Shown here one piece after another: positions 1 to 28,132 of a DNA stretch of 64,000 bases; positions within the stretch are counted from its first letter, which is position 1; the number at the start of each line of letters is the position of its first letter. Below the pieces are notes generated by a model that made no database searches, was not told the DNA's origin, and worked only from the letters and a program-made list of their open reading frames with translations. Position numbers and translations under genes: made by a program. Source of the stretch: Candidatus Nomurabacteria bacterium (GTDB lineage Bacteria > Patescibacteriota > Minisyncoccia > Phycocordibacterales > UBA918); contig JACKGJ010000002.1 in NCBI GenBank assembly GCA_020631995.1, positions 90,773-154,772 on the forward strand, read 5' to 3'.

Positions 1-726
1 GTCTTAGTGTTTCCTGCGAGCTCACGAAGTTTCTGGTTGTTATAGGTATCAACGTCGGCGTTGTGGGTATAGAGTTTAGTTGGTTCTATATTTTCATACG
101 AAATACTGGTTTGTTCAGAGAGTAGTGTGTAGTGGTCTTCTTCGACTTGATTAAGACGAATAGATTTCAAAAGTCCCAAGAAGAGATTATCTTCCTGGCG
201 GTGTTGCTCAGAGAGGTAGCAAGTGAGTAGTTGCGCATCACTCCAAGCTCTTGACTGGAAGCTATAGAGCATTGAGTCGCCTCGGCGTGTCACTGGTGGC
301 AACTGAAAAAAGTCACCCACGAAGACCACCTGTATTCCACCAAATGGTTCTTCGCGTTGGCGCACAGTCTTTAAAACCAGATTCACCATATCAAGAATCT
401 TGCCGTCGAGCATTGAAACTTCATCAATAACTAAGACATTGGCCTTTTTGGCGCGACGAGAAACTTTTTCATTAGTCGAAATTTTGTCTAGGTCGTACGG
501 AGTCAGAGTGTCGCGTATACCAATACCACTCCAGGAATGGATAGTCATACCACCTATATGTGTGGCAGCGATACCGGTTGAGGCGGTGACAGCTACCGAC
601 AAGCCCGCTGCTTCGAGCCAAGCAATGTACTGGTTGATTACATAAGTCTTCCCTGCTCCGGGTTCACCAGTTAAAAAAACATTAGCGCCGGTCTTTAAAA
701 TATCGAGAGCTGCATTTTGGGTCATT
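1..726 (-). CDS. PIF1/RecD-like P-loop DNA helicase, N-terminal part (gene runs off the left edge)
   Basis: Own reverse translation from ATG at 724-726: MTQNAALDILKTGANVFLTGEPGAGKTYVINQ (Walker A), then ANVLVIDEVSMLDGK (Walker B-like) and FVGDFFQLPPV. This is the motif order of PIF1/RecD-type helicases. It is absent from the ORF track because no stop lies in the window. Confidence 0.7.
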
Positions 727-775
727 GGGTATAAGTTTACCATTTCAGAGTGACTTACGGATATAATGAAACAAA

Positions 776-2524
776 ATGAGTTCCAGTGTACATACACATT
801 CAAAGGTGCAAGAAAAAACCACGCGAGAGCCACTCGGGCATTTAGTGTTGTCTCACGCTCTTAAGGATGCTGGTTTTAAGGGTGAGGTATTGAGTGATAA
901 AAAGACCTTAGAGCTATACGCTACAGACGAAAGTGTTTTCAGTATTAATCCTCAGTTGGTACTTCGCCCGCTTGATAGACGTGATGTAGAGGTGGCTGTG
1001 AATGTGATAGCAGAGCAGACCAAAAGCTTCCCTGGTCTTTCCTTAACGCCCCGTGCCGCTGGTACTGGGCTAGGTGGCGGTTCGCTCACTGATTCAGTAG
1101 TGATAGATATCAAGGAACACCTAAATCAGATAGATAGAATTTCCAAAGTAGGAAGCAAGGTCACTTTTACCGCTGGTCCTGGAGCGATGTGGCGTGATGT
1201 GGAGAAGGAGCTTAAAAAATACGACCGTTATCTTCCCTGCTATCCGGCTTCTAAACAAATCTGTACAGTCGGTGGTGCTGTTGCAAATAATGCCGCTGGT
1301 CCAGACTCACTGCGCTTTGGGCATGTGGCTGATTGGGTAGAGTCGCTTGAAGTCGTTTTGAAGGATGGAAAAACCTACGACGTTAAACCGCTTTCATATA
1401 AGGAATTTCGCAAACTCATAAAGCAAAAGAATGCTCTTGGTGAGATCGCTAAACAAGTCTTTGAGCTAGTTGAATCAAATGAAGAAACCATTAAGAGGGC
1501 CAAGCCGAAAACTTCTAAGAATAGTGCAGGTTATGCGCTTTGGAATGTGGTGACTCCGTCAGTGGCGGAATTTAAGAAAGGTAAAGGTACTTTTGATCTC
1601 ACCCGGATATTCTCTGGCGGACAAGGCACTATCGGTATCATTACCTCACTCACTATGCGGACTGAGCCAATTCACCACGACACTTCCCTAATAGCCGTAC
1701 CAGTTTTCAATCTATCCAATGCCAGTCGCGTAGTTATAGAGGCACTTAAGTACAACCCTATAAACGTAGAAGTCTTCGATGCTCTTACTTACGACGCAGC
1801 GATGCAAAACCCACAGTTCTTCCGTGACCGACTACCAAGCCTCAGCTACTACCGTGTACTGCTCTCTATGTACACTACCTATCACGTTAGATGGCGACGC
1901 AAACTTCCAGAGTTTGTTTTGCTGATTACTCTTGATAACGCTTCTTTAAAGGAATTAAAGAAGCCGATGACTGAAGTGATTGAGGCACTACGAGTGCGCG
2001 GTGGTCCTTCGGCCCGATTGATCCAAAACCCAAATGAACGAGAAATGTTTTGGCAGGTTCGTGACGGTAGTTACCTACTTTCAAAACTACTTGACCCTAA
2101 CAAGCGTCCAGCTGCATTCCTTGAGGATATGACAGTTCCACCTGAGCATATGGCCAAGTTCTTTTCTGATATCAAGTACCTACTCAAGAAATATAATGTA
2201 ACGGCGGCAGTACACGGACATGGTGGTAACGCCCATTTTCACTTCTATCCCCTACTCGATTTCACTAACCGCACTACTCCAGCTTTAATAGTGAAAATGT
2301 CGGAAGAATTCTTTAATGTGGCAGTGAAGTATGGTGGAAACATATGTGGTGAACATAACGACGGAATTATTCGCACACCACATTTATCTAAGATGTTTTC
2401 TAAGAACGCCATCAAGCTCTTTGAAGAAACTGAACACATCTTTGATCCTGATGACATCTTTAACCCTGGTAAAAAGGTCCATCCTCGTTTTGATATAAAA
2501 AGTTCGATTAGGAAGGTGAATTGA
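776..2524 (+). CDS. FAD-binding oxidoreductase (GlcD / D-lactate dehydrogenase-like)
   Basis: 582-aa ORF with an FAD-binding region (PRAAGTGLGGGS) and a C-terminal FAD-linked oxidase signature (HGHGGNAHFHFYP, GEHNDG). Confidence 0.75.
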   Translation: MSSSVHTHSKVQEKTTREPLGHLVLSHALKDAGFKGEVLSDKKTLELYATDESVFSINPQLVLRPLDRRDVEVAVNVIAEQTKSFPGLSLTPRAAGTGLGGGSLTDSVVIDIKEHLNQIDRISKVGSKVTFTAGPGAMWRDVEKELKKYDRYLPCYPASKQICTVGGAVANNAAGPDSLRFGHVADWVESLEVVLKDGKTYDVKPLSYKEFRKLIKQKNALGEIAKQVFELVESNEETIKRAKPKTSKNSAGYALWNVVTPSVAEFKKGKGTFDLTRIFSGGQGTIGIITSLTMRTEPIHHDTSLIAVPVFNLSNASRVVIEALKYNPINVEVFDALTYDAAMQNPQFFRDRLPSLSYYRVLLSMYTTYHVRWRRKLPEFVLLITLDNASLKELKKPMTEVIEALRVRGGPSARLIQNPNEREMFWQVRDGSYLLSKLLDPNKRPAAFLEDMTVPPEHMAKFFSDIKYLLKKYNVTAAVHGHGGNAHFHFYPLLDFTNRTTPALIVKMSEEFFNVAVKYGGNICGEHNDGIIRTPHLSKMFSKNAIKLFEETEHIFDPDDIFNPGKKVHPRFDIKSSIRKVN

Positions 2525-2599
2525 GGGTCTGAACTTTTGACATCTCCCTAAACTATAGTATAATTTTGGAAGATTATTTACGAAACAGGGAGTGTTCTC

Positions 2600-2962
2600 A
2601 TGAATCGATCCGTACTTACGCTGGTGCTTAGCATCAGTTTTTCGCCCGCTGTCTTGGCAGAGGACTTCCACTGCCCGGTTGCATCTTGTTCGGGGATACG
2701 CCAAAACGGGAAAGGACTAGACATTGCTGTTGCAAAAGCCACTTTTGTCCACGCTGTCGAATCTGGTGAAGTCATCTTCGCTGATCGCCTCAAGCAGCAT
2801 GGTATGACCATCATCATCCGCCACAACAACGGAGGATATTCCTCCTATGGTCAGCTGGAGACTTTCCTTGTAGGGACAGGCGTTCGTGTAGGTCAAGGAA
2901 AGAAAATTGCAGTAAAATTGCCTGGCCCACCACTCTACTTCGAGTTGACTCAGCTGGAGTAA
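2600..2962 (+). CDS. Secreted LytM/M23-domain protein, probably non-catalytic
   Basis: Signal-like N-terminus MNRSVLTLVLSISFSPAVLA. M23 fold pattern IIIRHNNGGYSSYGQL...GQGKKIA...LYFEL. The expected HxxxD and HxH zinc ligands read GLD and PLYFE. Confidence 0.6.
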   Translation: MNRSVLTLVLSISFSPAVLAEDFHCPVASCSGIRQNGKGLDIAVAKATFVHAVESGEVIFADRLKQHGMTIIIRHNNGGYSSYGQLETFLVGTGVRVGQGKKIAVKLPGPPLYFELTQLE

Positions 2963-3016
2963 TGATTCTCGCCACCATTGTGAGGCTACAATCCCTCAGT
3001 TGGTGAATACAAAAGT

Positions 3017-3050
3017 GCCCTCTTGATGCTTATCTTGAGGGCCTTTTCTT
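3017..3050 (+). terminator. Rho-independent terminator after the LytM gene
   Basis: Stem GCCCTC (3017-3022) / GAGGGC (3037-3042) followed by CTTTTCTT. Confidence 0.55.
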
Positions 3051-3058
3051 ATAATACC

Positions 3059-3078
3059 AGTTAGTCAGGATTGGAATC
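3059..3078 (+). repeat. Cassette-junction repeat R1 (right-hand 20 nt only)
   Basis: AGTTAGTCAGGATTGGAATC matches 18/20 of the right part of R2. The left GTGACCCT part is absent. Confidence 0.7.
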
Positions 3079-3164
3079 TTTAAATTAAGAAAAAATTGAG
3101 ATGTATTCCCAAAACGATAAATTTATGACATAAATACCCTGGATTAATATACGGAGGTTAACCA

Positions 3165-3803
3165 ATGCTAACAGCTTTTGCCTTCAAATGGAGGTTGACG
3201 GGCTTGATTGCAAAACTACTCTGGAGGAACATAGAATGCGGATACCTCGTTCGTGTGGCGAATAGACGAGGTGAACATATTCAATGTTTGGTTAATTGTG
3301 TGGGATACGAGTTTGTTTCAAGAGAGTCACGAATCACTAGGGTTGGCTATCACACACAATCCAGACCGGGGTACGCTGTAAATGTAAACGGAGAACGAAC
3401 TTCAGATATATGCTGGGAGGCTCCTGTTTGTATTACAGTCTATTGCGAGGATAAACCCCTATTGGGTTTTGCAGTAGAATTCCGTGGACCTGTTCTTTGT
3501 ATACGACAGTTACAAGGTGTTCCAGGCGTAAATATTCCCGAAGCTTTGCGCAAGTGGCCAGCTTTGTTTGTGTATGGAGCAAAGAACTTTCTCTACAATA
3601 CTGAAGAAATTAGTTCAATGCGCCTATATACAGCTGATCAGCGTCCATCTTACGAATATCCTGCAACTGACTTCTCAGAAACTGAATTGCAAGATTACCG
3701 ACGCAACCTACGCAGACGATATGATGGAACCGCTCGTCAACAAGGGTTTAAAAGAAAAGGTCATAAGTTCTGGTGGTGGGATTTGTCTCTAGTCCCGAAG
3801 TAA
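3165..3803 (+). CDS. Hypothetical protein (cassette 1)
   Basis: 212-aa ORF with ACGGAGG SD-like sequence 7 nt upstream of the ATG and its own terminator at 3824-3861. No family confidently recognised. Confidence 0.55.
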   Translation: MLTAFAFKWRLTGLIAKLLWRNIECGYLVRVANRRGEHIQCLVNCVGYEFVSRESRITRVGYHTQSRPGYAVNVNGERTSDICWEAPVCITVYCEDKPLLGFAVEFRGPVLCIRQLQGVPGVNIPEALRKWPALFVYGAKNFLYNTEEISSMRLYTADQRPSYEYPATDFSETELQDYRRNLRRRYDGTARQQGFKRKGHKFWWWDLSLVPK

Positions 3804-3823
3804 CCGGCGCAATCGCCACTCAT

Positions 3824-3861
3824 AAAATCGCCACCCGCGATTCTGGGTGGCGATTTTCATT
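3824..3861 (+). terminator. Rho-independent terminator of cassette 1
   Basis: AAAATCGCCACCC / GGGTGGCGATTTT perfect stem with an 8-nt loop and a T-run. Confidence 0.7.
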
Positions 3862-3880
3862 TTCCAAGTTGGACTAATCT

Positions 3881-3907
3881 GTGACCCTAGTTAGTCGGGA
3901 TTGGAAC
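3881..3907 (+). repeat. Cassette-junction repeat R2
   Basis: GTGACCCTAGTTAGTCGGGATTGGAAC. It lies between two convergent terminators. Confidence 0.8.
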
Positions 3908-3938
3908 TTTATATACAAACAAATCTTAGTTTTGAGAT

Positions 3939-3988
3939 AAAAAAGCAGCCCACAAAACGTGTCTATGGGACTTACGCTTTGTGGGCTG
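3939..3988 (-). terminator. Rho-independent terminator of cassette 2
   Basis: On the minus strand, CAGCCCACAAA / TTTGTGGGCTG forms an 11-bp stem followed by TTTTTT. A homologous copy lies at 42573-42620. Confidence 0.65.
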
Positions 3989-3990
3989 TA

Positions 3991-4344
3991 TCAGCCGATT
4001 GGCTTGTGTTCGACAAACCCGCTGTGTTCGAACGGACGAATCCAGATGCCGAAATTGATGTGGTTGAGGTCACAAGAATTGCCGAAATCGGCCTTCAGGG
4101 CTTGCTTGTGCACATCGACTTCCCCGACAGTTCTCGATCCTGTGTCGATGACAAATTCGAGTCGCAGGATATTGTCTGCAAGATCCGCATCTTCGGCTGC
4201 AATCGGTTTCGGAATCACAGCAATATCTTCCATGCTGTAGCCGAGCTGTTGCGAGACCAGTTCGCGAAACTTCGTCTTGTTCTCCTTCAGGATGGCACGA
4301 ACTTCATTGTCGTCTGCCCGAAAGAGGGGGTAAATGTGTGGCAT
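3991..4344 (-). CDS. Hypothetical protein (cassette 2), 117 aa from the internal ATG
   Basis: I prefer the ATG at 4342-4344 because AGGAAGGAG sits just upstream. The protein starts MPHIYPLFRADDNEV. An N-terminal Met-Pro is reminiscent of the tautomerase superfamily, but this is only a guess. A terminator lies on the same strand. Confidence 0.5.
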   Translation of the reverse strand: MPHIYPLFRADDNEVRAILKENKTKFRELVSQQLGYSMEDIAVIPKPIAAEDADLADNILRLEFVIDTGSRTVGEVDVHKQALKADFGNSCDLNHINFGIWIRPFEHSGFVEHKPIG

Positions 4345-4411
4345 GTCTGACTCCTTCCTATAATAAGAACGTATGTTGAAATAGTACACGTTAAATACAC
4401 TTTGTCAAGTT

Positions 4412-4438
4412 GTGACCCTCGTTAGTAACGATTGGAAC
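4412..4438 (+). repeat. Cassette-junction repeat R3
   Basis: GTGACCCTCGTTAGTAACGATTGGAAC, 23/27 identical to R2. On the minus strand it directly abuts TTGACA (-35) of cassette 2. Confidence 0.75.
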
Positions 4439-4465
4439 CGTATTTATCAAAATTTGATTAAAGTA

Positions 4466-4500
4466 AAAGAAAAACTCGCCCGGGTCGAAACCCGAGCGAG
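4466..4500 (-). terminator. Rho-independent terminator of cassette 3
   Basis: CTCGCCCGGGT / ACCCGAGCGAG stem (10/11 paired), CGAA loop, T-run on the minus strand. Confidence 0.65.
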
Positions 4501-4516
4501 GCGCTGAACACGAGGA

Positions 4517-4813
4517 TCAGCTGATCTTGAAGTTGCCGAAGCGCTTGCCGTTACGCATCCAGTACCGAGCCTCGAAGGAAATCGGCTTGGCAGGATCAGT
4601 CATGATCTCGCCATCGATAGTCCAATTGCGACGACCGGAATCGTGGTTGCGAATGCCCCAGATGCGGACAGGGGTCTCGTTGTGCTGGTTCTCCAGCCGG
4701 AAGAAAACTTCCGAGCCTTCAAACACCGCAAACATCAGAGACGTCCGATCGGGACCGTTGACGATGGCAGCACCATCGTAGCGTTCAAGCACTTCCTTGT
4801 CAGAGGTGAACAT
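4517..4813 (-). CDS. Hypothetical protein (cassette 3), 98 aa from the internal ATG
   Basis: ATG at 4811-4813 preceded by GAAAGGAAG. The protein starts MFTSDKEVLERYDG. Terminator on the same strand. The longer track ORF (to 4918) would run into the promoter region. Confidence 0.5.
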   Translation of the reverse strand: MFTSDKEVLERYDGAAIVNGPDRTSLMFAVFEGSEVFFRLENQHNETPVRIWGIRNHDSGRRNWTIDGEIMTDPAKPISFEARYWMRNGKRFGNFKIS

Positions 4814-4921
4814 TACGTTCTTCCTTTCTTCAAGATTGGGAGTGGCATTACGCCTGTCTCCACATCCGCAGGTGCGAGATGCAAATGGAAAATACCACAA
4901 TAATAGTGATTGTGTCAACTC

Positions 4922-4948
4922 GTGACCTTAGTTAGTCGGGATTGGAAC
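4922..4948 (+). repeat. Cassette-junction repeat R4
   Basis: GTGACCTTAGTTAGTCGGGATTGGAAC, 26/27 identical to R2. On the minus strand it abuts TTGACA of cassette 3. Confidence 0.8.
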
Positions 4949-5063
4949 CAGCTAATTAACCAAGTTAGGTTGGCAACCCTAGATTTAAGACAGTAGATAG
5001 ACATATTTCCATAGGTATTGTAGTGTTGCGATACCCTCAGAAATCAGTGAAAGGAGTATTTCA

Positions 5064-5636
5064 ATGGGTACTGTACATCTGACAAACGGCCACCACGGCC
5101 TGTATATCAGTAACGACAAGATCGACCTCAAGCAACGGGTTCTTCTCACTCAGGCAATGCTCGAGCGTCCCATCTTCATCCGCGGCGAACGTTGGGGAAG
5201 CCCGATGCAAGATGTCATTCGCGGTGCTCTTCAGGGCTTGATGGATTTGAAAGGCTTCAATGCCGCCGTCTCCTATCTCACTGTTGAACATGACGGCGTT
5301 CTTCACATCTCGACACCAAAGCGTGTGTGGTGCGAGATCTCTCTGGAGACTCCATGGGAAATCGCTCTTGGTTTCTCCCACGACTCGAGGTATCGCAATC
5401 ACCCCTTCACCACCCTACTCCAATGGCTGGAAGAGGAGTATCCGGCTGGCGAACTGCCCTACAATGAGTTCAAGCAATTCTGCTTCGGTTGGGTGTCTCC
5501 TGAGAAGTGGCGTGAGTTCTTTGAGCACAGGATCCAGAAGAAGGTCGAGACTATGCGATCCAAGGCCAATACCCTGCGCCATGAGGCACAAGGAATGACT
5601 GAACGGGCAAACTCTATCGAAGCCATACTCGGCTAA
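5064..5636 (+). CDS. Hypothetical protein (cassette 4)
   Basis: 190-aa ORF with GAAAGGAG SD 8 nt upstream of the ATG, visibly G+C-rich. No family recognised. Confidence 0.55.
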   Translation: MGTVHLTNGHHGLYISNDKIDLKQRVLLTQAMLERPIFIRGERWGSPMQDVIRGALQGLMDLKGFNAAVSYLTVEHDGVLHISTPKRVWCEISLETPWEIALGFSHDSRYRNHPFTTLLQWLEEEYPAGELPYNEFKQFCFGWVSPEKWREFFEHRIQKKVETMRSKANTLRHEAQGMTERANSIEAILG

Positions 5637-5738
5637 CGACACGGTCCACTGACAAAAGGAAAGGCACATCAGCCTCCGTGTCGGTGGGCCTTTTCTTTTT
5701 ACTAGCTTTTTCTATAAATAAGAGTAGATTAGCGTCCA

Positions 5739-6137
5739 ATGTCTACCGGAATGAAAGTGGTGGGAGTTATTGGGACTGTGATTGTCTTGTCCTTAGGTGT
5801 CTCTGCGGTTGAACCTACCACTTCAACTACTCCCCCACTAAACACTGCTACTGGGGCAGTTAAGATTGAGTCCAAGTCGGAAACCAAACAAGAAGCAAAA
5901 GCTGACGAGCCAGAACCTGCAATTAAGCCGGTAGAAAAACCTAAAACTACCCCAGCGACACCTAAACCAACCTCAAGTTGTCACCCAAGTTACTCAGGCT
6001 GTCTCAAAATGAATGCTGGTGATTATGACTGTGCCGGAGGCTCAGGAAACGGTCCAAATTATACTGGCACGGTCCAAGTCTACGGCTCCGACCCATTTGA
6101 CTTAGATAGAGATAACGATGGTTGGGGGTGTGAGTAG
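5739..6137 (+). CDS. Secreted Excalibur calcium-binding domain protein
   Basis: N-terminal TM/signal segment, Pro/Thr-rich linker, and C-terminal CHPSYSGCL...DYDCAGGSGNGPNY...DPFDLDRDNDGWGCE, the Excalibur DxDxDGxxCE signature. Confidence 0.7.
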   Translation: MSTGMKVVGVIGTVIVLSLGVSAVEPTTSTTPPLNTATGAVKIESKSETKQEAKADEPEPAIKPVEKPKTTPATPKPTSSCHPSYSGCLKMNAGDYDCAGGSGNGPNYTGTVQVYGSDPFDLDRDNDGWGCE

Positions 6138-7277
6138 TTAGAACCAACTTTTAAAGAAAGAAATTATTTTCTTAAAGAAACTTTCTTTCACAACACCTAA
6201 ATCTTCTTGATTGGTGTCAGTGTCACTGCTTGTTGATACTTCAGTTGTTTCCACTTCGTCAATCATTTCTTGTTCTCCCCTAGGCACTTCTTCCTTCAAT
6301 GTTTCATCAGTTTGTACTTCTTGCTCAACAGTAGCCTGTTTAGGGGTTGTTTGCGGTGGAGTGTAAGTTTGTGTTGACTGGAAGTAGTAGGAATAATCTT
6401 CTTCCTCCTCAGGTTCAGGAAACGAATCATCGTAAGTTTTTTCCTTATGCATGATTGAGCAGGTTTGGCTGTGGTCTTGAAGGACCACCGTATCAAATGT
6501 ATCAACGCTATAGTCTGTTCCTAAATTCACAACTAAATTTTTACCTCGATATCTCTCAATTGATGTGCTCAGACAGCCAACACCTACACGCACGATGTAT
6601 TTTGAGTAATCATAGTCACTTTTAATCAAAAGTTCCTTGTCATTTTCGGGATTTATATCAAGAAGTTTGAAGTAGACATTATTTTGTTTTTCAACACACT
6701 GATAATCGTCGTCAAACGTATACCCACTATCACACTCACATTTATTGCTTAAGCTATCGTAAGAAGATCTGTAGCCATGATCACTACGACAAACCTGGTT
6801 AGCATTAGTACATTGTTGATCTCCAAACATATTGGTATCAAAAATGTAACCATAACTACACTCACAAGTATCTGAAAGCGAGTCGTATCGTGACATGATT
6901 CCGTACTCGTCATGACAAGCAGAATCACCTGAAACACATTGTGTCTGTCCAGAATAATTTTTGCCAAAGACATATCCGTAACCACATTCACATCCTCCTG
7001 AGTAGTTTGCTCTTGCGTTAAATCCGTATTGATCTTGACAAGCTTGTGTCTCAGAGATGCAGTAAGAATTTCCAAGTACCCCCTCGCCCATCACGTAGCC
7101 TGACATACATTTACAGTACCCACCACTTTCATAGGCCATAATCCCATAATCACTGCAGGAAGAGCCATACTGGGCTTGCGCATCGTGAGTTAGTAATAAA
7201 AAGCCACCAAAAACAATGGTGGTTCCAAAGAGTGCAAAAATGATGGCTGGCTGAGCCAATTTTAGTAAGTTTTTCAT
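6138..7277 (-). CDS. Membrane-anchored Cys-rich repeat protein
   Basis: Start taken at MKNLLKLAQPAIIFALFG (ATG 7275-7277). Four tandem modules of the type C..(Y/H)G......S....C.C..GY.F, for example SCSDYGIMAYESGGYCKCMSGYVMG and SACHDEYGIMSRYDSLSDTCECSYGYIFD. Acidic C-terminal tail. Confidence 0.65.
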   Translation of the reverse strand: MKNLLKLAQPAIIFALFGTTIVFGGFLLLTHDAQAQYGSSCSDYGIMAYESGGYCKCMSGYVMGEGVLGNSYCISETQACQDQYGFNARANYSGGCECGYGYVFGKNYSGQTQCVSGDSACHDEYGIMSRYDSLSDTCECSYGYIFDTNMFGDQQCTNANQVCRSDHGYRSSYDSLSNKCECDSGYTFDDDYQCVEKQNNVYFKLLDINPENDKELLIKSDYDYSKYIVRVGVGCLSTSIERYRGKNLVVNLGTDYSVDTFDTVVLQDHSQTCSIMHKEKTYDDSFPEPEEEEDYSYYFQSTQTYTPPQTTPKQATVEQEVQTDETLKEEVPRGEQEMIDEVETTEVSTSSDTDTNQEDLGVVKESFFKKIISFFKSWF

Positions 7278-7624
7278 TGAGATTAAAATAGCACTAAAAG
7301 TGTAAAAGTCTAGGTTGTAGAACAGATGAAACTTGTCTGGTTGCATGGCTGGACCTTTGACTCCGTATAAGTGGCGGTTAAGAAAACCGGTACTAGAGAT
7401 TTTGTAAATAACCGTTCTTGTTGGTTAAAGGTAAATTTTTTGTGTATTAGCATTATTTTCACAAAGAACAACCCACCCCTGTGGATAACTCAGAATGGTG
7501 CAGTTTTCCCTTCCAGAAAATACGGCTTAGATAAGGGCTTTTTGCGTAAAAGTTTGATTTTAATGTTTCGAGCTTAAATTTATACCATTTTTAAGCCGTG
7601 TTTAAATATAAGTAGATAGCATTT

Positions 7625-7716
7625 TGTGCAGGCGTCGTGATTTTCACGGCAAGTTATTGCCGTAGAGCTGATCACTGTTGGGGCAAATGCCCCAACGAAA
7701 TCGTGACGCCTGCACA
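7625..7716 (+). ncRNA. Candidate structured RNA, three-way junction, unclassified
   Basis: 19-bp closing stem 7625-7643 / 7698-7716, including two G.U pairs that work only on the plus strand. Hairpins ACGGCAA/TTGCCGT (7646-7663) and GTTGGGGC/GCCCCAAC (7677-7696). Confidence 0.3.
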
Positions 7717-7810
7717 GTACACTATCTGCCCTCTTTACAGATTAACAGGAAAAGGTCGACTGTCATGTCTGTTTTCCACAGGGCTTTAAAAGTATCATTT
7801 TGTTCTTAGT

Positions 7811-7978
7811 ATGACAAATAAACGTTTTCGCGGACTTCGCCCACTAAAACCATTGGATAGAATGCAAAACATGCGGACAATGAGACCAATGGGAGCAAAG
7901 AAGTGGGTTAAGGCTCACTGGAGATGGGACTATGACCGACGGCAGTGGGAATGGGTAACGGGACATTGGAGTAGATAA
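7811..7978 (+). CDS. Small basic Trp-rich protein (55 aa), YXWGXW-repeat-like
   Basis: Own translation: MTNKRFRGLRPLKPLDRMQNMRTMRPMGAKKWVKAHWRWDYDRRQWEWVTGHWSR. It is below the track length cut-off. A GCCGA/TCGGC hairpin plus TATTTTCTT follows near 8041-8067. Confidence 0.4.
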   Translation: MTNKRFRGLRPLKPLDRMQNMRTMRPMGAKKWVKAHWRWDYDRRQWEWVTGHWSR

Positions 7979-8103
7979 TATCGTTGTGGTCACAAGTTAC
8001 TAAGTATAATCGTGCATTTCATGCAGATTATACTAAGTACTTGCCGACCCCGCCTCGGCTATTTTCTTCACTAGGAAGGGTTCAGAAAATTATGCCTGCG
8101 GCC

Positions 8104-8195
8104 TCACATCAGGCCCGAAACTGAAGCAGTTCAGTTTCTACACAAGAAAACACTACCTCACGGAGAAGTAGTGTTTTCTTGTGTGCCTGATGTGA
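8104..8195 (-). other. Compact three-way-junction structure in the tRNA-Glu 3' trailer
   Basis: Stems 8104-8114/8185-8195 (11 bp), 8117-8125/8130-8138 (9 bp) and 8140-8156/8168-8184 (17 bp). Only 3 unpaired junction nucleotides. Confidence 0.3.
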
Positions 8196-8264
8196 CCCTA
8201 CAGGGAATCGAACCCTGATTTAAGCCTTGAGAAGGCTCCGTCCTAACCGTTAGACGATAGGGCC
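8193..8264 (-). tRNA. tRNA-Glu (anticodon CUC)
   Basis: GGCCCTATCGTCTAACGGTTAGGACGGAGCCTTCTCAAGGCTTAAATCAGGGTTCGATTCCCTGTAGGGTCA folds as a 72-nt cloverleaf with anticodon loop TTCTCAA. CCA is not encoded. Confidence 0.9.
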
Positions 8265-8414
8265 AGTGGCGGTATTTATACCAAATATTTTGCGTTTAGT
8301 GAAGTGATGTGAGGGGGGTGGCTCTATATAGCTTTTGTCATAAATTCCCTGCCTACTCGTCTTATATAGTAGTGGCGATGGTTATCGCAGGTTATTAACT
8401 TAAATAAAATTCTT

Positions 8415-8603
8415 ATGTTATCTTGGGCTCTCACTTTCTTTGTCCTAGCTCTAATCGCTGGTGTGCTAGGTTTTACCGGCATCGCTTCAGCTTCGGCTGG
8501 AATCGCGAAGATTCTCTTTGTTGTCTTTATTATTCTCTTTGTCCTGTCTTTCTTTTTTAAGGCAGCGGGTAAAGCGGACAATATGCTCGACAAGAATATG
8601 TAG
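8415..8603 (+). CDS. DUF1328/YtjA-type small membrane protein
   Basis: [45 protein letters not shown] matches the UPF0391 pattern. Confidence 0.75.
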
Positions 8604-8667
8604 AACGTGTAGCGGACAGAATAAAAGGCCGACACTTTCTGTGCCGGCCTTTTCGCTTTCTTTCAGT

Positions 8668-8940
8668 TCAGTGCAAACGGAACTCAGCGTCCACCATGCG
8701 AATCTCAGCGGGCCTGATGAGGTGGCTGTGTGCAATAACCACCGAATTGATGGGTGCTTCAATAGAAGTTTCCCAGAATTGCAGGAATTTTTGCAAACGC
8801 GGGAATTTAGGGTGCAGATCGTAGAACTGCCAGATAAATTCGCCCAGTAGCGACGGTGTGTCGGGAAGTCGATAGTAGATATGGGCTGTGGTCTGTCCAT
8901 ATCCTGCCATTGATTCACGGAAAGCGGTGTCGGTGTGCAT
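8668..8940 (-). CDS. Usg-like family protein
   Basis: Start at ATG 8938-8940 with AAGGAGG upstream. YGQTTAHIYYRLPDTPSLLGEFIWQFYDLHPKFPRLQKFLQFWETSIEAPINSVVIAHSHLIRPAEIRMVDAEFRLH fits my recollection of the Usg family, which is typical of Alphaproteobacteria. Flanked by G+C-rich hairpins. Confidence 0.6.
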   Translation of the reverse strand: MHTDTAFRESMAGYGQTTAHIYYRLPDTPSLLGEFIWQFYDLHPKFPRLQKFLQFWETSIEAPINSVVIAHSHLIRPAEIRMVDAEFRLH

Positions 8941-9049
8941 TTTCTGTCCTCCTTTTCCTGTGGGAAATGATAATACTTTGAATAATTTGCACAAGAAAAA
9001 CCGGCGTTTAAACGCCGGTTTTTCTATGCTGTCAATTCAAGGTGAACTA

Positions 9050-9751
9050 CTAATTGTCGTCAGTAGTGAAGTCTTCTACATCTCCACAAACTAGTACATC
9101 GTCACCATCCTCATCTTCGAATCCGACGCAAATAGTGAAGTAGTAGTCAGTGTCTTCGTCGAGTCCAGTAACGGTCTCTTCGTAGTCCTCATCATCATCA
9201 AGGTTTGAATCAACGCGGACCTTTTGTAGGTCATCACCGTCTTCGTCAACATCACGATATGAGTCATAGTCATCTTCAACGTCTTCAATCTGATCCTCAT
9301 CTTCTCCGTAGACAAAGAATACTTCTCCGTCTTCAAAGTCGTTCATATCGACTGAACCACGAAGTTCAGCTCTGTCATCTTCAATATCACGAGCACTGTC
9401 AGTTTCTACTTCAGGCTCATCGTCATCGTTGTTTCTAGAGTCACCACGCGGGTCTCCGATAACGTAACCATAGCTATAGTTGTAGCCAGGGTTGTAGTAT
9501 CCACCACCGTAGTTGTATCCCTTACGAGCCTCAATTTGGGCCTGTAGCTGAACAATAAGCTGCTTAAGGAAAGCGATAAGCTGTTCCTCACTCATTTGGT
9601 TACCGCCATACGTGTAAGTAGGGGTATTTGTATTCTGGTATTGATAAGTGGTCGGTACGTAATAGTAAGTGCTGTTAGCTTCAGCCTGTCCTGCTGGGTA
9701 AAAAGCAAAAACTGCTGCAACTGCCACACCTAGGAATAAAATCTTTTTCAT
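9050..9751 (-). CDS. Secreted Tyr/Gly-rich and extremely acidic protein
   Basis: Signal peptide MKKILFLGVAVAAVFAFYPAGQAEA, a YNYGGGYYNPGYNYSYGY segment, then a long Asp/Glu-rich C-terminal half. Confidence 0.6.
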   Translation of the reverse strand: MKKILFLGVAVAAVFAFYPAGQAEANSTYYYVPTTYQYQNTNTPTYTYGGNQMSEEQLIAFLKQLIVQLQAQIEARKGYNYGGGYYNPGYNYSYGYVIGDPRGDSRNNDDDEPEVETDSARDIEDDRAELRGSVDMNDFEDGEVFFVYGEDEDQIEDVEDDYDSYRDVDEDGDDLQKVRVDSNLDDDEDYEETVTGLDEDTDYYFTICVGFEDEDGDDVLVCGDVEDFTTDDN

Positions 9752-9831
9752 ACGTTCGTACTGTACACCTTTAAATCAGAGTGTCAAGGGTAGAATTTAA
9801 TCGCTGAATTTGAGTATCTAAATCAATGTAA

Positions 9832-11124
9832 CTAGCTAATATCTTTCCAGGCTCGGCTTTGACGTACTAGCAGATTCTCAGCCTCAGCTGGGTTAGCCAT
9901 AATTTCCTCTACTATTTTCTCCATTCTCATACTCTGAGAGCCTTTTATGAGGACGATGTCGCCTGGTTGGAGTAGGTTTTGGAGTTCTTTACCGGCTTGA
10001 GTCGCTTCTTCATACTGCAGGATGTTTTTTTCACTCATTCCAGCTTCAAGTGCTGCTTCAGCAATGCCACGAGAGCGAATACCGATAGTAATTAAAAGAT
10101 CAGTACACTCTTCTGCCTGAATACCAACACGCTCATGCTCCCCCACTGAGAAGCGTCCGAGTTCTAACATATCTCCAAGTACAGCCACTTTACGATTGAA
10201 ACCTTTTATCTCCTTTAGGGTAGATAAAGATCTCTCTACTGCCACTGGAGAAGAATTGTATGTATCATCAATAATAACTGTGTTCTTGATACCTTCTATT
10301 AGGCGCATACGGCCAGGTGGCGGTATAAAGTCTTGAAGTGCAACCGCAGAGTCATTTAAAGAGATATTAAAGCAGCTAGCTACTGCTGTTGCGGCTGAAA
10401 AATTGTATGTATGTGCCACGCCAATAGCACCTAGTAGTGTGCACTTAGCACTCTCACCATTTGAATGGATAGTGAAGCCCATACCCTTTGGACTACCATC
10501 TTTGTAGATTACTTCATCACCCTTAACTACAAAATCAGATTCGGAATAACGACTATAACCAATGGAGCGTTGTCTGGTTTGTTCGGCTACTTCCAGCACA
10601 GCTTCGTCATCATGGTTGTATATCAATACCCCGTCGTCCTTCAGGGCTTCAACTAGTGCTCTCTTTTCAGCTATGACTGCTTCAGGTGAGGAAAAGTATT
10701 CTACATGTACTGGCACACTTGGAAGTCGAGTTAATACTACGATGTCTGGTTTAACCCATGATGCCAATCTCTTCATATCTCCTGGACGGTCCACTCCCAT
10801 TTCAAGAACTAACACCTCTGGGTAGTTACCTGGAAAAAGTGCGTGTAAAAGACCATCAATAATGTTTTTAAACCAGTGAAAAGGATTCTGCCAAGCATTA
10901 TCAAGTCCGAGTATCGAAAGCGGTACACCAATATCGGAGTTGTAGCTCTTTTCGCTCTTTCTGGTGCGGACTTTGTTTTTAAGTACGTGATAGATGGCGT
11001 CTTTAGTAGAGGTCTTCCCCACACTTCCTGTTATGGCCACTATCTTTGGCTTCGTTCTCCGTAAGAGCAGTCGAGCTTCGGCAGTTAGAATGGTAACAAT
11101 CAGAGATTTTAAAATAGATTTCAT
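9832..11124 (-). CDS. murF: UDP-N-acetylmuramoyl-tripeptide--D-alanyl-D-alanine ligase
   Basis: Mur ligase P-loop ITGSVGKTSTKD, 430 aa, positioned directly downstream of ftsI. Confidence 0.85.
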   Translation of the reverse strand: MKSILKSLIVTILTAEARLLLRRTKPKIVAITGSVGKTSTKDAIYHVLKNKVRTRKSEKSYNSDIGVPLSILGLDNAWQNPFHWFKNIIDGLLHALFPGNYPEVLVLEMGVDRPGDMKRLASWVKPDIVVLTRLPSVPVHVEYFSSPEAVIAEKRALVEALKDDGVLIYNHDDEAVLEVAEQTRQRSIGYSRYSESDFVVKGDEVIYKDGSPKGMGFTIHSNGESAKCTLLGAIGVAHTYNFSAATAVASCFNISLNDSAVALQDFIPPPGRMRLIEGIKNTVIIDDTYNSSPVAVERSLSTLKEIKGFNRKVAVLGDMLELGRFSVGEHERVGIQAEECTDLLITIGIRSRGIAEAALEAGMSEKNILQYEEATQAGKELQNLLQPGDIVLIKGSQSMRMEKIVEEIMANPAEAENLLVRQSRAWKDIS

Positions 11125-11165
11125 ATGTGAGGTTGATGGGTAACAAAAGGATTTAACTGATTATT

Positions 11166-12890
11166 CTATCGATCCGGCGGGATATTGTAGTAGTTTATCA
11201 AGAATTTAGTGATATTCATAAAAGGCTCGGTCAGGGTTTCTGATGAGTAACTTACCCCCTGCGGGTTAACTGTGTATAGGAATACCAAGAACTCTGGGTC
11301 GTAGGCGGGGAAATAACCAAAGAATGAGTGTAGGTAGCGGTCCTCATAGTACCCTCCAGTGTTGCTAGCCATCTGGGCCGTACCGGTTTTGGCAGCCACT
11401 GTGTGCTCAGGAAGCTTAACTTTACCGCCACGTAGCGCATCATCTACCACGGTCACCAACATTCTGCTTATCTCTTCACTAGTTTCTTTACTCCATACCT
11501 GGTCTCCTTCTGGAAACATTATTTCTTTTTTTGTACCGTCTTCATATTCAATAGACTTAACTATATGAGGAGTGATAAGACGTCCACCGTTACCCAACGC
11601 TGACAGCGCTCGTACTGCAGCTATTGGAGTGAGAGCGATACCTTGCCCGTATGATGCTGTGGCATATTCGATACTACGTGTTGTGTTGAGGTTTTCTAGG
11701 TCGCCGTGTATCTCGCCCACTAGGTCTATTCCCGTCTCGCTCCCTAGTTTTAGTTTATTAAAATATTCTAGAAAACGTGCCTGACCCATTGTCCTCACTA
11801 CGAAGGCCACGCCAGTGTTTAATGATTGATTCAATACTTCTTGCATAGAAACAGTGCCGCGACCGCGGCCATCGTAGTTACGAATCGTTTCAGTGTCTAT
11901 CTCTAGGAAACCCGCATCGTAATAGGTGGTATTAGCAGAAACAGCTTTGCTATCAATACCAACCGCCATAGTGAGGGCCTTAATAATACTGCCGAGTTCG
12001 TAGCGAGCACTGACTAATGGATTGGTGAAATGATCTAGAGTGCTGGTACCACGAGCATTTGGATTAAAGGTAGGTACAGCATCAATCGCATAAATCTCTC
12101 CAGTCTTAGGGTTGATTATGATTCCACCAGTTAGTTCTGACCGCCAGACACCATTGGCTTTTAGTAATTCATTTTGTAGTAGTCTGGCCACGGTCGGCTC
12201 GATTGTAGTCACAATATCACCCTCTTTTTTTTCTGGGTCTTCAGAGATTAGCTTGCCAAGGTTGGTAAATAGCTCGGCAAAAAAATTGACCGATAACTCC
12301 TCGCTCTTTCGGTGCAGGGTGTCTTCGTAGTAGCGTTCTAGTCCGTATCGTCCGATAGGTTCCTCGCCGACTGTTTTCCCCTCGTATGCCACAAAGCCAA
12401 TAGTGCGGGCAGATAAAGGTCCTCCAGGATAATAACGCCAGCGCTGTCGTTTTAGTGATACTCCAGGCAGATCGAGTTCTTTTATGGCCAGAGCTTCTTC
12501 TTCAGTTAGTTCTTCACGGATCTCTACGTCGACGCGATTTTCTAAAGTAGCACGGTATAGAAAAGTTTCTTTGTTTATAAAAATATACTGCTTTAAGGCT
12601 TCATACAAAGCTTCTGCATTTTCAACCCGACTCGGATCGAGTGAGAGAGTGTACCCACTTTGAATGGTGGCAGCACTCACTTTCTCTCCGTCACGGGTAG
12701 TGAAATAAATACTACCTCGATCATAAAGATTTTGGACCGTATGAATGTACTGTCCTTCACCACGGGCGACGTAGGTTTCAAAACTGATGACTTGTAGTTG
12801 ATAAAGGCGTGCTACTAACACTAAAGCCACCAGCAAGACTATACCGGTGATTACTCTTATTCTGATTACTGCTGCATTTCTTGCACTCAT
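11166..12890 (-). CDS. ftsI: Penicillin-binding protein, FtsI/PBP3-type transpeptidase
   Basis: N-terminal TM segment. Transpeptidase motifs SIIK (SxxK), SLN (SxN) and KTGTA. The ATG at 12888-12890 is preferred over the TTG used by the track. Confidence 0.8.
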   Translation of the reverse strand: MSARNAAVIRIRVITGIVLLVALVLVARLYQLQVISFETYVARGEGQYIHTVQNLYDRGSIYFTTRDGEKVSAATIQSGYTLSLDPSRVENAEALYEALKQYIFINKETFLYRATLENRVDVEIREELTEEEALAIKELDLPGVSLKRQRWRYYPGGPLSARTIGFVAYEGKTVGEEPIGRYGLERYYEDTLHRKSEELSVNFFAELFTNLGKLISEDPEKKEGDIVTTIEPTVARLLQNELLKANGVWRSELTGGIIINPKTGEIYAIDAVPTFNPNARGTSTLDHFTNPLVSARYELGSIIKALTMAVGIDSKAVSANTTYYDAGFLEIDTETIRNYDGRGRGTVSMQEVLNQSLNTGVAFVVRTMGQARFLEYFNKLKLGSETGIDLVGEIHGDLENLNTTRSIEYATASYGQGIALTPIAAVRALSALGNGGRLITPHIVKSIEYEDGTKKEIMFPEGDQVWSKETSEEISRMLVTVVDDALRGGKVKLPEHTVAAKTGTAQMASNTGGYYEDRYLHSFFGYFPAYDPEFLVFLYTVNPQGVSYSSETLTEPFMNITKFLINYYNIPPDR

Positions 12891-14257: not shown

Positions 14258-14692
14258 CTATAATGCTCCAACCGAACCGAGCTTTTCTGCCAAGGAGTCA
14301 GCTTGTTCTTCGATCTTTTTCTTATAGTCGTTCCACTTCTTCTCATCCCAGATTTCAACACGGTCATGGAGTCCGGCCAAAACCACTTTGGTTTTTAGTT
14401 TGGCGAACTCCTTCAAATAATCTGGAACGAGAATACGTCCGGCTTTGTCTACCTCCACTTCAACCGCACCGGAAAGAAAAAATCTATGAACGCTACGCGT
14501 GTCCGCTGAACCAAGTGGCAAACCTACAACCTTGTCGGTTAGAGTTTGCCACTCGGCTCGGGCGTACACAAAGAGACAGTTATCGAATCCGCGAGTGACG
14601 ATTAGTTTCTTCCCCATTTTGGCGCGCCACTTACTTGGAAGTGACAATCGCTTCTTTGGGTCCAATGTATGAACATATTCACCAATCAACAT
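14258..14692 (-). CDS. mraZ: Transcriptional regulator MraZ
   Basis: MLIGEYVHTLDPKKRLSLPSKWR plus a second DxxxR-type repeat (VEVDKAGRILVP). 144 aa, first gene of the dcw cluster. Confidence 0.9.
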   Translation of the reverse strand: MLIGEYVHTLDPKKRLSLPSKWRAKMGKKLIVTRGFDNCLFVYARAEWQTLTDKVVGLPLGSADTRSVHRFFLSGAVEVEVDKAGRILVPDYLKEFAKLKTKVVLAGLHDRVEIWDEKKWNDYKKKIEEQADSLAEKLGSVGAL

Positions 14693-24986: not shown

Positions 24987-25039
24987 AAGTTTTAATTACT
25001 AGACTTCTTTAAAGCTAGTATGTCTAGTTTTAAAGAAGT

Positions 25040-25579: not shown

Positions 25580-25611
25580 ATTAAATAAAGTTAAAATTTT
25601 AGTGTAAGGAG

Positions 25612-26202: not shown

Positions 26203-26214
26203 CTGCTCATTTTA

Positions 26215-27933: not shown

Positions 27934-28132
27934 ATCACTATTATTGTATCACTGTGTCTACTAACAACACGTGTGTTTGTGTGAATTGTGAACTGTGAAT
28001 TACTAACTTCTTTATAAACTAAATGAAGTTGTGCTGGTTGGAAGAATTTTTGGCGACAGAGCCTTAGATTAAACTAAGGTGACCGAGCCAAAATTCTGAA
28101 ACCAGTGCAAATTCGTTAGTTTTAGAAGAAGG

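Follow-up and report, generated by a model that had tools for sequence, protein, structure and literature searches.

A 27-nt repeat sharing its end with tRNA-Glu borders small gene cassettes in Patescibacteria: a candidate recombination hotspot

How did a row of small genes, separated by direct copies of one 27-nt repeat, come to lie in the chromosome of a patescibacterium? The locus sits in a 64-kb stretch of DNA from Candidatus Nomurabacteria (the window, 64,000 nt; positions are counted from its first base). The reading that we favor, with a probability of roughly two in three, is that the 3′ end of tRNA-Glu acts as a hotspot for site-specific recombination, where tiny integrase-less cassettes have accumulated into an array; the tRNA-Glu end would be the attB/attI-like site, the repeat would be the site borne by each cassette, and a recombinase would act in trans. 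The original prediction had suggested that the locus might be undescribed. Full-text literature searches returned no description of this arrangement, but the locus belongs to a known broad kind, tRNA gene site-specific integration with tandem accretion, and in that sense it is not unprecedented.

Repeat copies and the genes between them

Pattern and profile searches confirmed four direct copies of the 27-nt repeat in the 64-kb window, all on the plus strand and clustered within 3059-4948: the truncated copy R1 (3059-3078), the full repeat R2 (3881-3907; GTGACCCTAGTTAGTCGGGATTGGAAC), the variant R3 (4412-4438; GTGACCCTCGTTAGTAACGATTGGAAC, 4 mismatches) and R4 (4922-4948; 26/27 identical to R2). 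The pattern search recovered R2 and R4 (1 mismatch) where zero matches were expected by chance. A looser pattern gave four exact matches, including R3 and the R1 core at 3060-3076, against 0.65 expected, and a fifth match with two mismatches at 6367-6383; only R1 to R4 matched when the whole window was scanned with a repeat profile built from 24 copies. In register, the copies are spaced 830, 531 and 510 bp apart, which leaves the predicted second and third distances intact and replaces the first (824 bp).

The conserved unit is 27 nt long with sharp edges. Read on the opposite strand, it consists of an 18-nt arm, GTTCCAATCCCGACTAAC, and a 9-nt core, TAGGGTCAC, so that R2 in the sense of the tRNA is GTTCCAATCCCGACTAAC-TAGGGTCAC. 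Between loci, the 24 copies have a mean identity of ∼90%, with TTCCAATC..ACTAAC.AGGGTCAC almost invariant, and the cassettes that they flank are 67 to 71% identical. The site is conserved beyond its flanking cassettes, which points to selection on the repeat and is one of our arguments for the favored reading.

Constant-orientation direct repeats of 27 nt recall CRISPR repeats or dif-like sites, and the layout recalls an integron. However, the repeat with 20 nt on either side, folded as DNA, was no more stable than shuffled sequences (z from −1.72 to +0.55), and no Rfam family matched it. A CRISPR array was rejected, as the 510- to 830-bp intervals hold expressed-looking genes, versus the 25- to 70-nt spacers between 23- to 50-nt repeats of CRISPR, and Pfam annotation revealed neither cas genes nor intI. 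A REP/MITE cluster was likewise rejected, since the four copies are clustered rather than dispersed over the 64 kb and form no hairpin. In line with the original prediction, the folding scores and the profile scan speak against a CRISPR array, a classical integron/CALIN, a pdif/Xer module array or a REP/MITE cluster, and we regard the chance that the repeat belongs to one of these classes as close to negligible.

Each of the three repeat-to-repeat intervals contains one credible small gene with its own promoter, Shine-Dalgarno sequence and terminator. Cassette 1 (3096-3857, plus strand) has a promoter-like site (3096-3123), gene c1 (3165-3803; 212 aa), which reads toward the tRNA, and a terminator with a perfect 13-bp hairpin (3824-3857). 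In cassette 2 (3908-4411, minus strand), −35/−10 elements (4408-4381) precede gene c2 (4344-3991; 117 aa), whose terminator (3988-3946, including 3949-3969) is followed by a conserved spacer. Cassette 3 (4439-4921, minus strand) comprises −35/−10 elements (4918-4889), gene c3 (4813-4517; 98 aa) and a terminator (4500-4475). The three terminators agree with the prediction, as do the exact TTGACA −35 boxes of the two minus-strand genes (at 4408 and 4918, inside cassettes 2 and 3). Of the four one-gene intervals that had been proposed, the three described above stand (3165-3803, 3991-4344 and 4517-4813), but the fourth gene (5064-5636) lacks a repeat on its far side. Similarly, the claimed G+C richness applies to c2 (0.51), c3 (0.55) and this fourth unit, c4 (0.53), and fails for c1 (0.44), the background being 0.442 (SD, 0.027).

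Gene orientation is mixed among the cassettes, and all repeat copies are direct. The minus-strand genes c2 and c3 are backed by conserved homologues, with each family forming 5 clusters among 5.8 billion proteins; the c1 family has ∼110 representative clusters and gave no match in Pfam or the PDB. Protein c2 has an invariant Pro2 and a weak match to the tautomerase fold, and it is possibly tautomerase-like.

R1 differs from the other copies in keeping the arm on the cassette side (AGTTAGTCAGGATTGGAAT) and having the 9-nt core swapped for ATAATACC (profile E value, 2e-4). It matches the right-hand side of R2 at 17 of 19 bases, slightly fewer than the 18 of 20 first counted, and its left 8 nt are unrelated to R2, as the prediction that they were lacking implied. 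The same junction, CTTATAATAC(C/T)AGTTAGTCAGGA, recurs at 14389-14412 in strain L001, and R1 is the terminal junction of the array.

A tRNA-Glu anchor shared by independent loci

A feature overlooked in the original prediction is a tRNA-Glu(CTC) gene 3.2 kb from the array (8192-8264, minus strand). Its 3′ end reads ...GTTCGATTCCCTG-TAGGGTCAC, and positions 8192-8200 are GTGACCCTA on the plus strand. The repeat, read in tRNA sense, and the tRNA end in the same 9 nt. When repeat and tRNA were compared by plain local alignment, only this 9-nt core was significant, with 150 of 20,000 shuffles scoring equally well; the 18-nt arm, as judged by eye, resembles the tRNA T-loop/T-stem with a 5-nt insertion. 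The repeat as a whole may be a diverged version of the tRNA-Glu 3′ end. A genuine 16-nt duplicate of the tRNA end is present in L001 at 17241-17257. From these sequences, we propose that the tRNA-Glu 3′ end may be the primary, attB/attI-like attachment site.

Between R4 and the tRNA lies a multigene variable segment of ∼3.2 kb (4949-8191) that is absent from L001. It contains genes at 5064-5636 (plus strand; the fourth cassette of the prediction), 5739-6137 (plus strand; Excalibur-like C terminus), 6138-7346 (minus strand; Cys-rich) and 7811-7978 (plus strand), as well as a long hairpin (7629-7717). The profile scan found no further repeat copies in the segment. The Excalibur-like 3′ end of the 5739-6137 gene recurs in the island of locus L018. 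In the window, the tRNA is adjoined by a 3.2-kb block free of repeats and the repeat-bounded cassettes lie farther away, which we count against the favored reading.

Pattern scans covered public genomes and metagenomes, and the matches were loci in Patescibacteria metagenome-assembled genomes; several are short metagenomic or k=31 contigs, in which repeats could cause misjoins. Wherever the flank sufficed, the repeats were located downstream of tRNA-Glu (CTC or TTC), in tRNA orientation and spaced 340 to 2,000 bp apart. Seven independent loci are linked to tRNA-Glu: the window, L004/L010, L007/L012, L009, L013, L018 and L008. Most repeat-to-repeat intervals across loci hold 1 gene in 340 to 1,000 bp, and the longest reach ∼2 kb with 2 or 3 genes.

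Among 22 copies, 9 (R3 and R4 included) have a TTGACA −35 box at a distance of 3 nt, which could indicate that the 27-mer is an operator, UP-type element or insulator at accessory gene promoters, repeated for coregulation. However, the remaining copies, such as R2, border terminators of genes in the opposite orientation, and the direction of the repeat always follows the tRNA and not the neighboring gene. The box is equally found past the tRNA end itself (2 to 3 nt beyond it in L009 and L013), at the same distance as after R3, R4 and the copies in L005, L008, L018, L019 and L026, and this shared junction supports the favored reading. As a regulatory role accounts for neither the tRNA-Glu linkage, the core identity nor the content breakpoints, we consider it very improbable.

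Cassette turnover between strains and loci

The left border of the variable region is conserved and consists of a Peptidase_M23 gene (2600-2962, plus strand; Pfam PF01551) and its terminator (together 2600-3055). Window positions 1-3055 are 100% identical to 9226-12280 of L001, with the break coming after CTTATAAT, and identity resumes exactly at 8192, the tRNA-Glu 3′ end. The whole stretch from the M23 peptidase terminator to the tRNA end (3056-8191) is thus replaced in L001 between flanks that are 99.7 to 100% identical, and the break at 3055/3056 places R1 at the border with conserved chromosome, as had been claimed. L001 14411-15170 matches cassette 1 at 94% identity amid other neighbors: cassette 1 is followed by c2 in the window but by cassette D in L001, and D is followed by c2 in L013.

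Homology between loci also ends at repeats. Blocks homologous to c2 lie between repeats in L013 (673-1211; 88.7%), L008 (682-1276; 68%) and L026 (240-654; 71%). The c3 blocks (window 4412-4949 with L026 2203-1613; window 4401-4947 with L005 641-1237) stop at the outer repeat edges, and in L026 the order of c2 and c3 relative to the tRNA is inverted, with another cassette in between. In L005, the sequence past the last repeat copy (the contig ends ∼50 nt on) resembles the flank downstream of the tRNA in the window, a displacement that insertion at the tRNA predicts. Locus L032 has a solo c3-like cassette at a non-tRNA site between a 53-aa gene and fpg, and the matching intergenic region in the window is empty (∼13 to 20 nt). 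This solo cassette keeps the arm and has the core replaced; similar truncated arms occur at R1 and in L025. The content swap with L001, the permuted cassettes with homology ending at repeats and the solo cassette at a site empty in the window all support the cassette capture or exchange that was originally suggested. The expectation that strain differences would break at the repeats held next to R1 and for the homology blocks, but some boundaries lie elsewhere: L001 genes A to C are bordered by an 11-nt microhomology, TTTCTTATAAT, and not by the 27-mer, and a c3 homologue in L029 has no repeat on either side. These boundaries count against the favored reading.

Consistent with the original prediction, no recombinase was detected in the window, either as a domain in Pfam annotation (of a near-identical contig and of window positions 51 to 64 kb) or in a phmmer screen of the window's ORFs of ≥100 aa with XerD. 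Among the compared loci, no cassette or locus had a recombinase except for a large serine recombinase fragment in L017, whose close homologues occur in unrelated contexts where the repeat is absent. More than 20 cassettes in ∼12 loci yielded no integrase fragment. No excision junction and no circular form of a cassette appeared either, and this, like the missing recombinase, counts against the favored reading.

The homology blocks that stop at repeats, the recombinase-free window and the TTTCTTATAAT-bounded differences in the same island would also be expected if the 27-mers were short conserved sequences for RecA-dependent (or transformation-associated) cassette swaps between related, naturally competent cells rather than recombinase sites. 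However, 27 bp is at the lower limit for RecA-mediated exchange. Portable homology also leaves unexplained the 9 nt that the site shares with the tRNA terminus, the constant position of arrays beside tRNA-Glu and the exact cut between arm and core in terminal and secondary-site copies. We consider it improbable.

Alternatively, the repeats could be only scars, that is, attR-type remnants of successive integrations at tRNA-Glu, in which ordinary islands or prophages, larger and equipped with an integrase, later decayed to single immobile genes, with strain differences arising by homologous replacement of whole islands via the flanks. Serial tRNA integration leaving partial tRNA copies is well documented (tycheposon islands [bioRxiv 10.1101/2020.12.28.424599]; CIMEs and accretion [PMC5704250]), the window and L001 differ over the entire 5-kb segment between identical flanks as such replacement would give, and some boundaries (L001 and L029) lack repeats. 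Against decay stand the absence of integrase fragments from all of the cassettes surveyed, the short and mostly single-gene intervals, the permuted cassette order and the solo cassette at the non-tRNA site of L032. Furthermore, independent decay would not hold a non-tRNA 18-nt arm at ∼90% identity across lineages in which the cassettes are at 67 to 71%. We regard the scar explanation as unlikely.

Proposed mechanism, related elements and significance

A cassette read in tRNA orientation begins 2 to 3 nt past a GGGTCAC core and ends with the arm GTTCCAATCCCGACTAAC and then the core TAGGGTCAC. Most cassettes have 1 gene and a few have 2 or 3, with a promoter and terminator for each gene in either orientation. 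Under the favored reading of a tRNA-Glu recombination hotspot, a circular cassette with one site would recombine either with the core that ends the tRNA or with a repeat already in place. Insertion would regenerate the tRNA and leave arm and core at the distal end of the cassette, and repeated insertions would set direct copies of the site between cassettes. Any two sites could then recombine to excise or reshuffle cassettes, and the rare insertions at pseudosites would keep the arm but lose the core, as seen at R1. The enzyme would have to act in trans, encoded at another place in the genome or on a helper element. Its catalytic role is wholly inferred, and a tyrosine or serine site-specific recombinase is most likely.

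Functionally, the array would resemble an integron in which the tRNA end stands for attI and the repeat for attC, using short, unstructured sites and cassettes that each bring a promoter. As in integrons, small and mostly single-gene cassettes end in a constant-orientation site, are shuffled between genomes and are inserted at one anchor, with occasional secondary-site insertions. Unlike in integrons, Pfam and phmmer with XerD identified no adjacent intI, the site is 27 nt and unstructured instead of a folded attC hairpin of 55 to 140 nt (R″/L″-L′/R′ boxes), the anchor is a tRNA gene end and not attI, and the cassettes have their own promoters in both orientations without Pc-driven co-orientation.

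IMEX elements and pdif modules are recombinase-less, are integrated by a host-encoded recombinase (Xer) and form tandem arrays with short, 28-bp sites. The present modules share the tandem, recombinase-less layout with short intervening sites. However, their site is the tRNA-Glu end and not dif, sequence inspection revealed no 11-6-11 dif architecture, the repeat orientation is constant whereas pdif modules alternate, and the window is apparently closer to the origin than to the terminus. In staphylococci, SCC composite islands and pseudo-SCC elements are found at rlmH (orfX); these are multi-kilobase elements with large serine recombinases, and some rely on Ccr in trans. They, too, are arranged in tandem where a conserved gene has its 3′ end, are delimited by short direct att repeats and in some cases lack a recombinase, but SCC targets a protein-coding gene, is multi-kilobase and has a recombinase of known identity.

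Tycheposons of Prochlorococcus encode a tyrosine or large serine recombinase of their own along with replication genes, and have multi-kilobase cargo (bioRxiv 10.1101/2020.12.28.424599). Both they and the present locus form a variable island beside a tRNA gene (here starting exactly at the tRNA end) with flexible cargo. Directly repeated sites separate the modules, as serial integration at the tRNA 3′ end would yield, and in the present locus these sites may be partial copies of the tRNA. Here, in contrast, the units are mostly 0.35 to 1 kb with a single gene, none has a recombinase, and the site is a conserved 18-nt arm plus 9-nt core common to Patescibacteria lineages, not a plain tRNA copy. 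CIMEs of Streptococcus are mobilizable only by a recombinase from another element and are viewed as decayed ICEs or IMEs of several kilobases (Guedon et al. 2017, PMC5704250). Like CIMEs, the cassettes are att flanked, devoid of recombination and transfer genes, and lined up at a target gene's 3′ end, and they would move only through a recombinase from another element; the sequences compared contained no related autonomous element. Unlike CIMEs, they are units of uniformly small size, with a single gene and its promoter, that recur and are permuted between genomes.

Patescibacteria (CPR) have tiny genomes from which, to our knowledge, few conventional mobile elements have been reported, and their accessory gene exchange is poorly understood. 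tRNA-anchored minimal, self-expressing cassettes that turn over between strains with near-identical flanks would provide a concrete mechanism for accessory gene flux. They would also solve, for a second time and independently, the integron problem of how to capture single genes at one site. The cassette proteins are nearly all orphans, which suggests that the arrays mark a gene pool under rapid exchange, with roles perhaps in host or phage interaction. Were the recombinase found, this compact system, with a 27-bp site whose 9-bp core also occurs in the tRNA, could become a useful recombination tool. More tentatively, and at somewhat less than even odds, Patescibacteria may possess an integron-analogous capture system in which a dedicated trans-acting recombinase docks at the tRNA-Glu 3′ end, recognizes a 27-bp double-stranded cassette signal and moves single, promoter-bearing, mostly one-gene cassettes, with occasional drops at pseudosites and possibly a reach into other phyla (L017). 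Such a system would be a main route of accessory gene flux in these reduced genomes.

The repeats and their cassettes

All four repeat copies of the original prediction were recovered. The 27-mer GTGACCCTAGTTAGTCGGGATTGGAAC was present in full at R2 (3881-3907) and with one mismatch at R4 (4922-4948), where a pattern scan of the window expects 0 chance matches, and the looser core GTTAGTNNNGATTGGAA (0.65 matches expected by chance in the window) picked up R3 (4412-4438) and R1 (match at 3060-3076). R1 is a partial copy, as had been described, although it retains the right-hand 19 nt and not 20. In register, the repeats are spaced by 830, 531, and 510 bp. A profile from 24 repeat copies, in short TTCCAATC-N4-ACTAAC-N-AGGGTCAC, returned these four sites only in the 64-kb window, so the repeat is clustered and not dispersed. 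Between loci, repeat identity averages 90% with sharp edges, compared with 67 to 71% for homologous cassettes. The site thus shows higher conservation than the flanked genes, which, at the level of sequence comparison, argues for selection acting on the repeat. No significant fold of the repeat (attC-like or RNA structure) was found, and it was therefore rejected as an attC-like site. It had no match in Rfam, and inspection by eye of positions 10 to 12 against 19 revealed no consistent pairing.

Each repeat interval holds one credible gene: c1 (3165-3803, plus strand), c2 (3991-4344, minus strand), and c3 (4517-4813, minus strand). The features first read from the sequence are in place, with visible Shine-Dalgarno sequences, exact TTGACA −35 boxes upstream of both minus-strand genes, and terminator hairpins. 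The gene at 5064-5636 (plus strand; c4), taken earlier for a fourth cassette, instead belongs to a 3.2-kb repeat-free block adjoining the tRNA and is not bounded by repeats. Of the four genes, c2, c3, and c4 show the proposed G+C enrichment (0.51 to 0.55; background, 0.442 ± 0.027), whereas c1 (0.44) does not.

Searches of Pfam, NCBIfam, PHROGs, and PADLOC returned nothing for c1 to c4 or for six cassette proteins of other loci, and defense-system models did not match c1 to c4. The c1 family comprises ∼110 representative clusters, and its profile matched nothing in PDB or Pfam. For the c2 protein, the resemblance to tautomerases is weak; Pro2 is invariant, and the structural model is mediocre (pLDDT, 64). 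The AlphaFold model of c3 is good (pLDDT, 82.6) and had no convincing fold match in PDB; no match was found for c4. Exact-protein look-ups for c2 and c3 returned nothing, even though c2 is present in NCBI as H6788_02080 ("Candidatus Nomurabacteria bacterium"). Cargo at other loci includes isochorismatase, peptidase C39, HAD hydrolase, NYN, SleB-type hydrolase (Hydrolase_2), and Lactamase_B/anti-Pycsar-like proteins. The variable island also contains a near-perfect hairpin of ∼90 nt (7629-7717; GTGCAGGCGTCGTGATTT...AAATCGTGACGCCTGCAC) between a Cys-rich gene and a 55-aa open reading frame, with no match above noise in Rfam.

The tRNA-Glu anchor

The only tRNA gene in the vicinity of the array is tRNA-Glu(CTC) (8192-8264, minus strand), and the two share a 9-nt core. 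On the opposite strand, the repeat reads GTTCCAATCCCGACTAAC-TAGGGTCAC, and the tRNA ends in ...GGTTCGATTCCCTG-TAGGGTCAC, the last 9 nt being identical. Across the whole window, an exact GTGACCCTA occurs only in R2 and at the tRNA-Glu end. The 18 nt that precede this core in the repeat (the cassette-side arm) resemble, by eye, the T-loop and T-stem of the tRNA (GTTCCAATCCCGA versus GTTCGATTCCCTG) with a 5-nt insertion, CTAAC; plain local alignment recovers the core only.

We scanned species-representative genomes, JGI/ENA metagenomes, and viral contigs with the pattern GACCNTNGTTAGTNNNGATTGGAA and found 6 loci in the first set and 12 in the second. A viral origin was rejected, as neither the repeat pattern nor the c1 to c3 proteins matched IMG/VR contigs. 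Convincing matches were in MAGs labeled Saccharibacteria, Paceibacterota, or "Patescibacteria group." Matches at L003, L016, and four identical OFE* contigs (L011, L014, L015, and L020) lacked an array or tRNA context and were set aside as probably due to chance or unrelated. Several comparison contigs are short, and at every locus with enough flank (L004/L010, L007/L012, L009, L013, L018, and L008) the repeats lie downstream of tRNA-Glu (CTC or TTC), in the orientation of the tRNA. The tRNA-Glu genes of array loci all end in G(T/G)(A/G)GGGTCAC, and successive sites are 344 to 2,019 bp apart, with one to three small genes per interval. At L009 and L013, a TTGACA −35 box begins 2 to 3 nt past the tRNA end, and the box is equally spaced from R3, from R4, and from seven more repeat copies. 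Either core, that of the tRNA or that of a repeat, can therefore adjoin the start of a cassette, which is what recombination inside the core would predict.

Two further features of the window lie away from the array. A group I intron (43312-43608, minus strand; Rfam RF00028, 82.8 bits) sits in the anticodon loop of a tRNA missed by ARAGORN (exons, TCCGCGGTAGCTCAGCGGTAGAGCGGTCGACTGT and TAATCGATTGGTCGCAGGTTCGAATCCTGCCCGCGGAG). The split gene resembles tRNA-Asn(GUU) or, with a shifted splice site, Asp(GUC); neither is known as a usual host of introns among bacterial tRNAs. The window may also include the replication origin: in the region of about 24000-29200, the cumulative GC skew has its minimum near 24 kb, and gene orientation diverges between 28133-29176 (minus) and 29204-30739 (plus).

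Modular cassettes and strain variation

Cassettes recur as repeat-bounded modules, in permuted orders and alone. The c2 cassette (3880-4416) is found again at L013 (88.7%), L008 (68%), and L026 (71%), and the c3 cassette (4412-4949) is found at L026 and L005 (67 to 68%), with homology blocks that stop at the outer repeat edges. L026 starts with GGGTCAC and continues with a c2-like gene, a repeat, a reversed 241-aa gene, a repeat, a c3-like gene, a repeat, and chromosome; relative to the tRNA, the order of c2 and c3 is thus the opposite of that in the window, and a further cassette separates the two. The neighbor after cassette 1 is c2 in the window and a different cassette, D, in a strain with near-identical flanks (L001; GCA_020632025.1); cassette D is in turn followed by c2 in L013 and is present again in L018. 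In the genome of L008, a solo c3-like cassette (L032) lies between a 53-aa gene and fpg, an intergenic region of only ∼13 to 20 nt in the window. The fpg stop codon and the arm of this cassette, ATTCCAATTCGTACTAAC, are separated by 3 nt; the core has been replaced, and the opposite side has a degenerate one, GGAGTTAC-TAG-TTGACA. The repeats at R1 (..CTAACT/GGTATTAT) and in L025 (..CTAACTAG/TACCC) are likewise cut where the arm meets the core. Some cassette homologues (L029) have lost their repeats.

Two contigs add separate observations. In L025 (860-4800), a c2 homologue (80%) and a truncated repeat stand beside genes matching ZorA-like, OmpA-like, DUF8245, and DUF2130 proteins, which looks like a defense-island neighborhood. 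A 1-kb Logan contig (L031, 1-1019) carries a c3-like gene, a repeat, a reversed 64-aa gene, and a repeat, and its end overlaps its own start by 8 nt (compare L026 650-700), an overlap that a two-cassette unit in tandem or circular form could produce.

The FAD-oxidase protein of the window (776-2524) is identically encoded on two other contigs, L001 and a Logan contig (L002). L001 is 100% identical to window positions 1-3055 and 99.7% identical to 8192-12494; between these flanks, 5.1 kb in the window is replaced by a different 5.2 kb in L001. Cassette 1 alone is common to both islands (94%), with different neighbors in L001. In the L001 island, a diverged repeat copy (16243-16270) and a truncated version of the R1 junction are present, as is a true 16-nt duplicate of the tRNA end (17241-17257); the TTGACA box belonging to a Lactamase_B-family gene comes 3 nt after this duplicate. 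The flanks break at 3055/3056, three bases before R1, and at the exact tRNA-Glu 3′ end. Other breaks in the island fall at different short homologies. The terminator-tail homology GGGCCTTTTCTT occurs twice in the window (3039-3055 and 5686-5697), and another, TTTCTTATAAT, flanks the extra genes A to C of L001 on either side (12270-12280 and 14386-14396); both coincide with gene-content breakpoints away from the 27-mer. These coincidences indicate that microhomology-mediated deletion or insertion also shapes the island. In L001, which is of the same species, a lone 206-aa gene lies between those for RmuC and YqeY (2585-3448), some 6 kb to the left of where the window begins. Two repeat-like copies in a decayed state (8 and 5 mismatches) flank it, no tRNA is nearby, and it probably represents an old secondary-site cassette.

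Recombinase search and likeness to known systems

No recombinase gene was found among the proteins encoded in the window, in agreement with the first reading; a phmmer search of 381 ORFs with an XerD query, which serves as a lead only, was also blank. One recombinase was found near a repeat, a large-serine-recombinase fragment of a widespread family in L017. It was rejected as the array enzyme because other family members occur in unrelated, repeat-free contexts: its homologues P0006 and P0009 (loci L027 and L028) lie in non-Patescibacteria surroundings of 50% GC. The gene looks like a target or neighbor. In L017 (845-2460), two diverged copies of the 3′ end of the recombinase gene, each starting with GTGACC, enclose a 131-aa cassette that bears a repeat, together with an NYN-domain gene, and the G+C content is 0.38 in the insert and 0.55 to 0.61 in the surrounding contig. 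The arrangement points to an insertion at a pseudo-site resembling tRNA-Glu, perhaps in a genome from outside the Patescibacteria.

We propose that a site-specific recombinase acting in trans would join a cassette-borne site to the tRNA end or to a resident repeat. Successive insertions would build the array, recombination between repeats would excise or reshuffle cassettes, and events at pseudo-sites may leave junctions with the arm only. No excised cassette circle was observed. Tandem accretion at tRNA genes is the logic shared with tycheposon islands and CIMEs. Ordinary tRNA-targeted islands, in contrast, bring an element-borne integrase, which is absent here. Integrons are alike in function, but the locus has no intI, no folded attC, and no Pc-dependent orientation.

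Searches of full-text literature returned no account of this arrangement. In substance, the original prediction of a cassette-capture or cassette-exchange locus is borne out by the repeat-bounded modules, the permuted orders, and the segment replaced relative to L001, and the feature is real. Judged from its sequence, the locus would best be placed with site-specific integration systems that target tRNA genes, as a new variant functioning in the manner of an integron.
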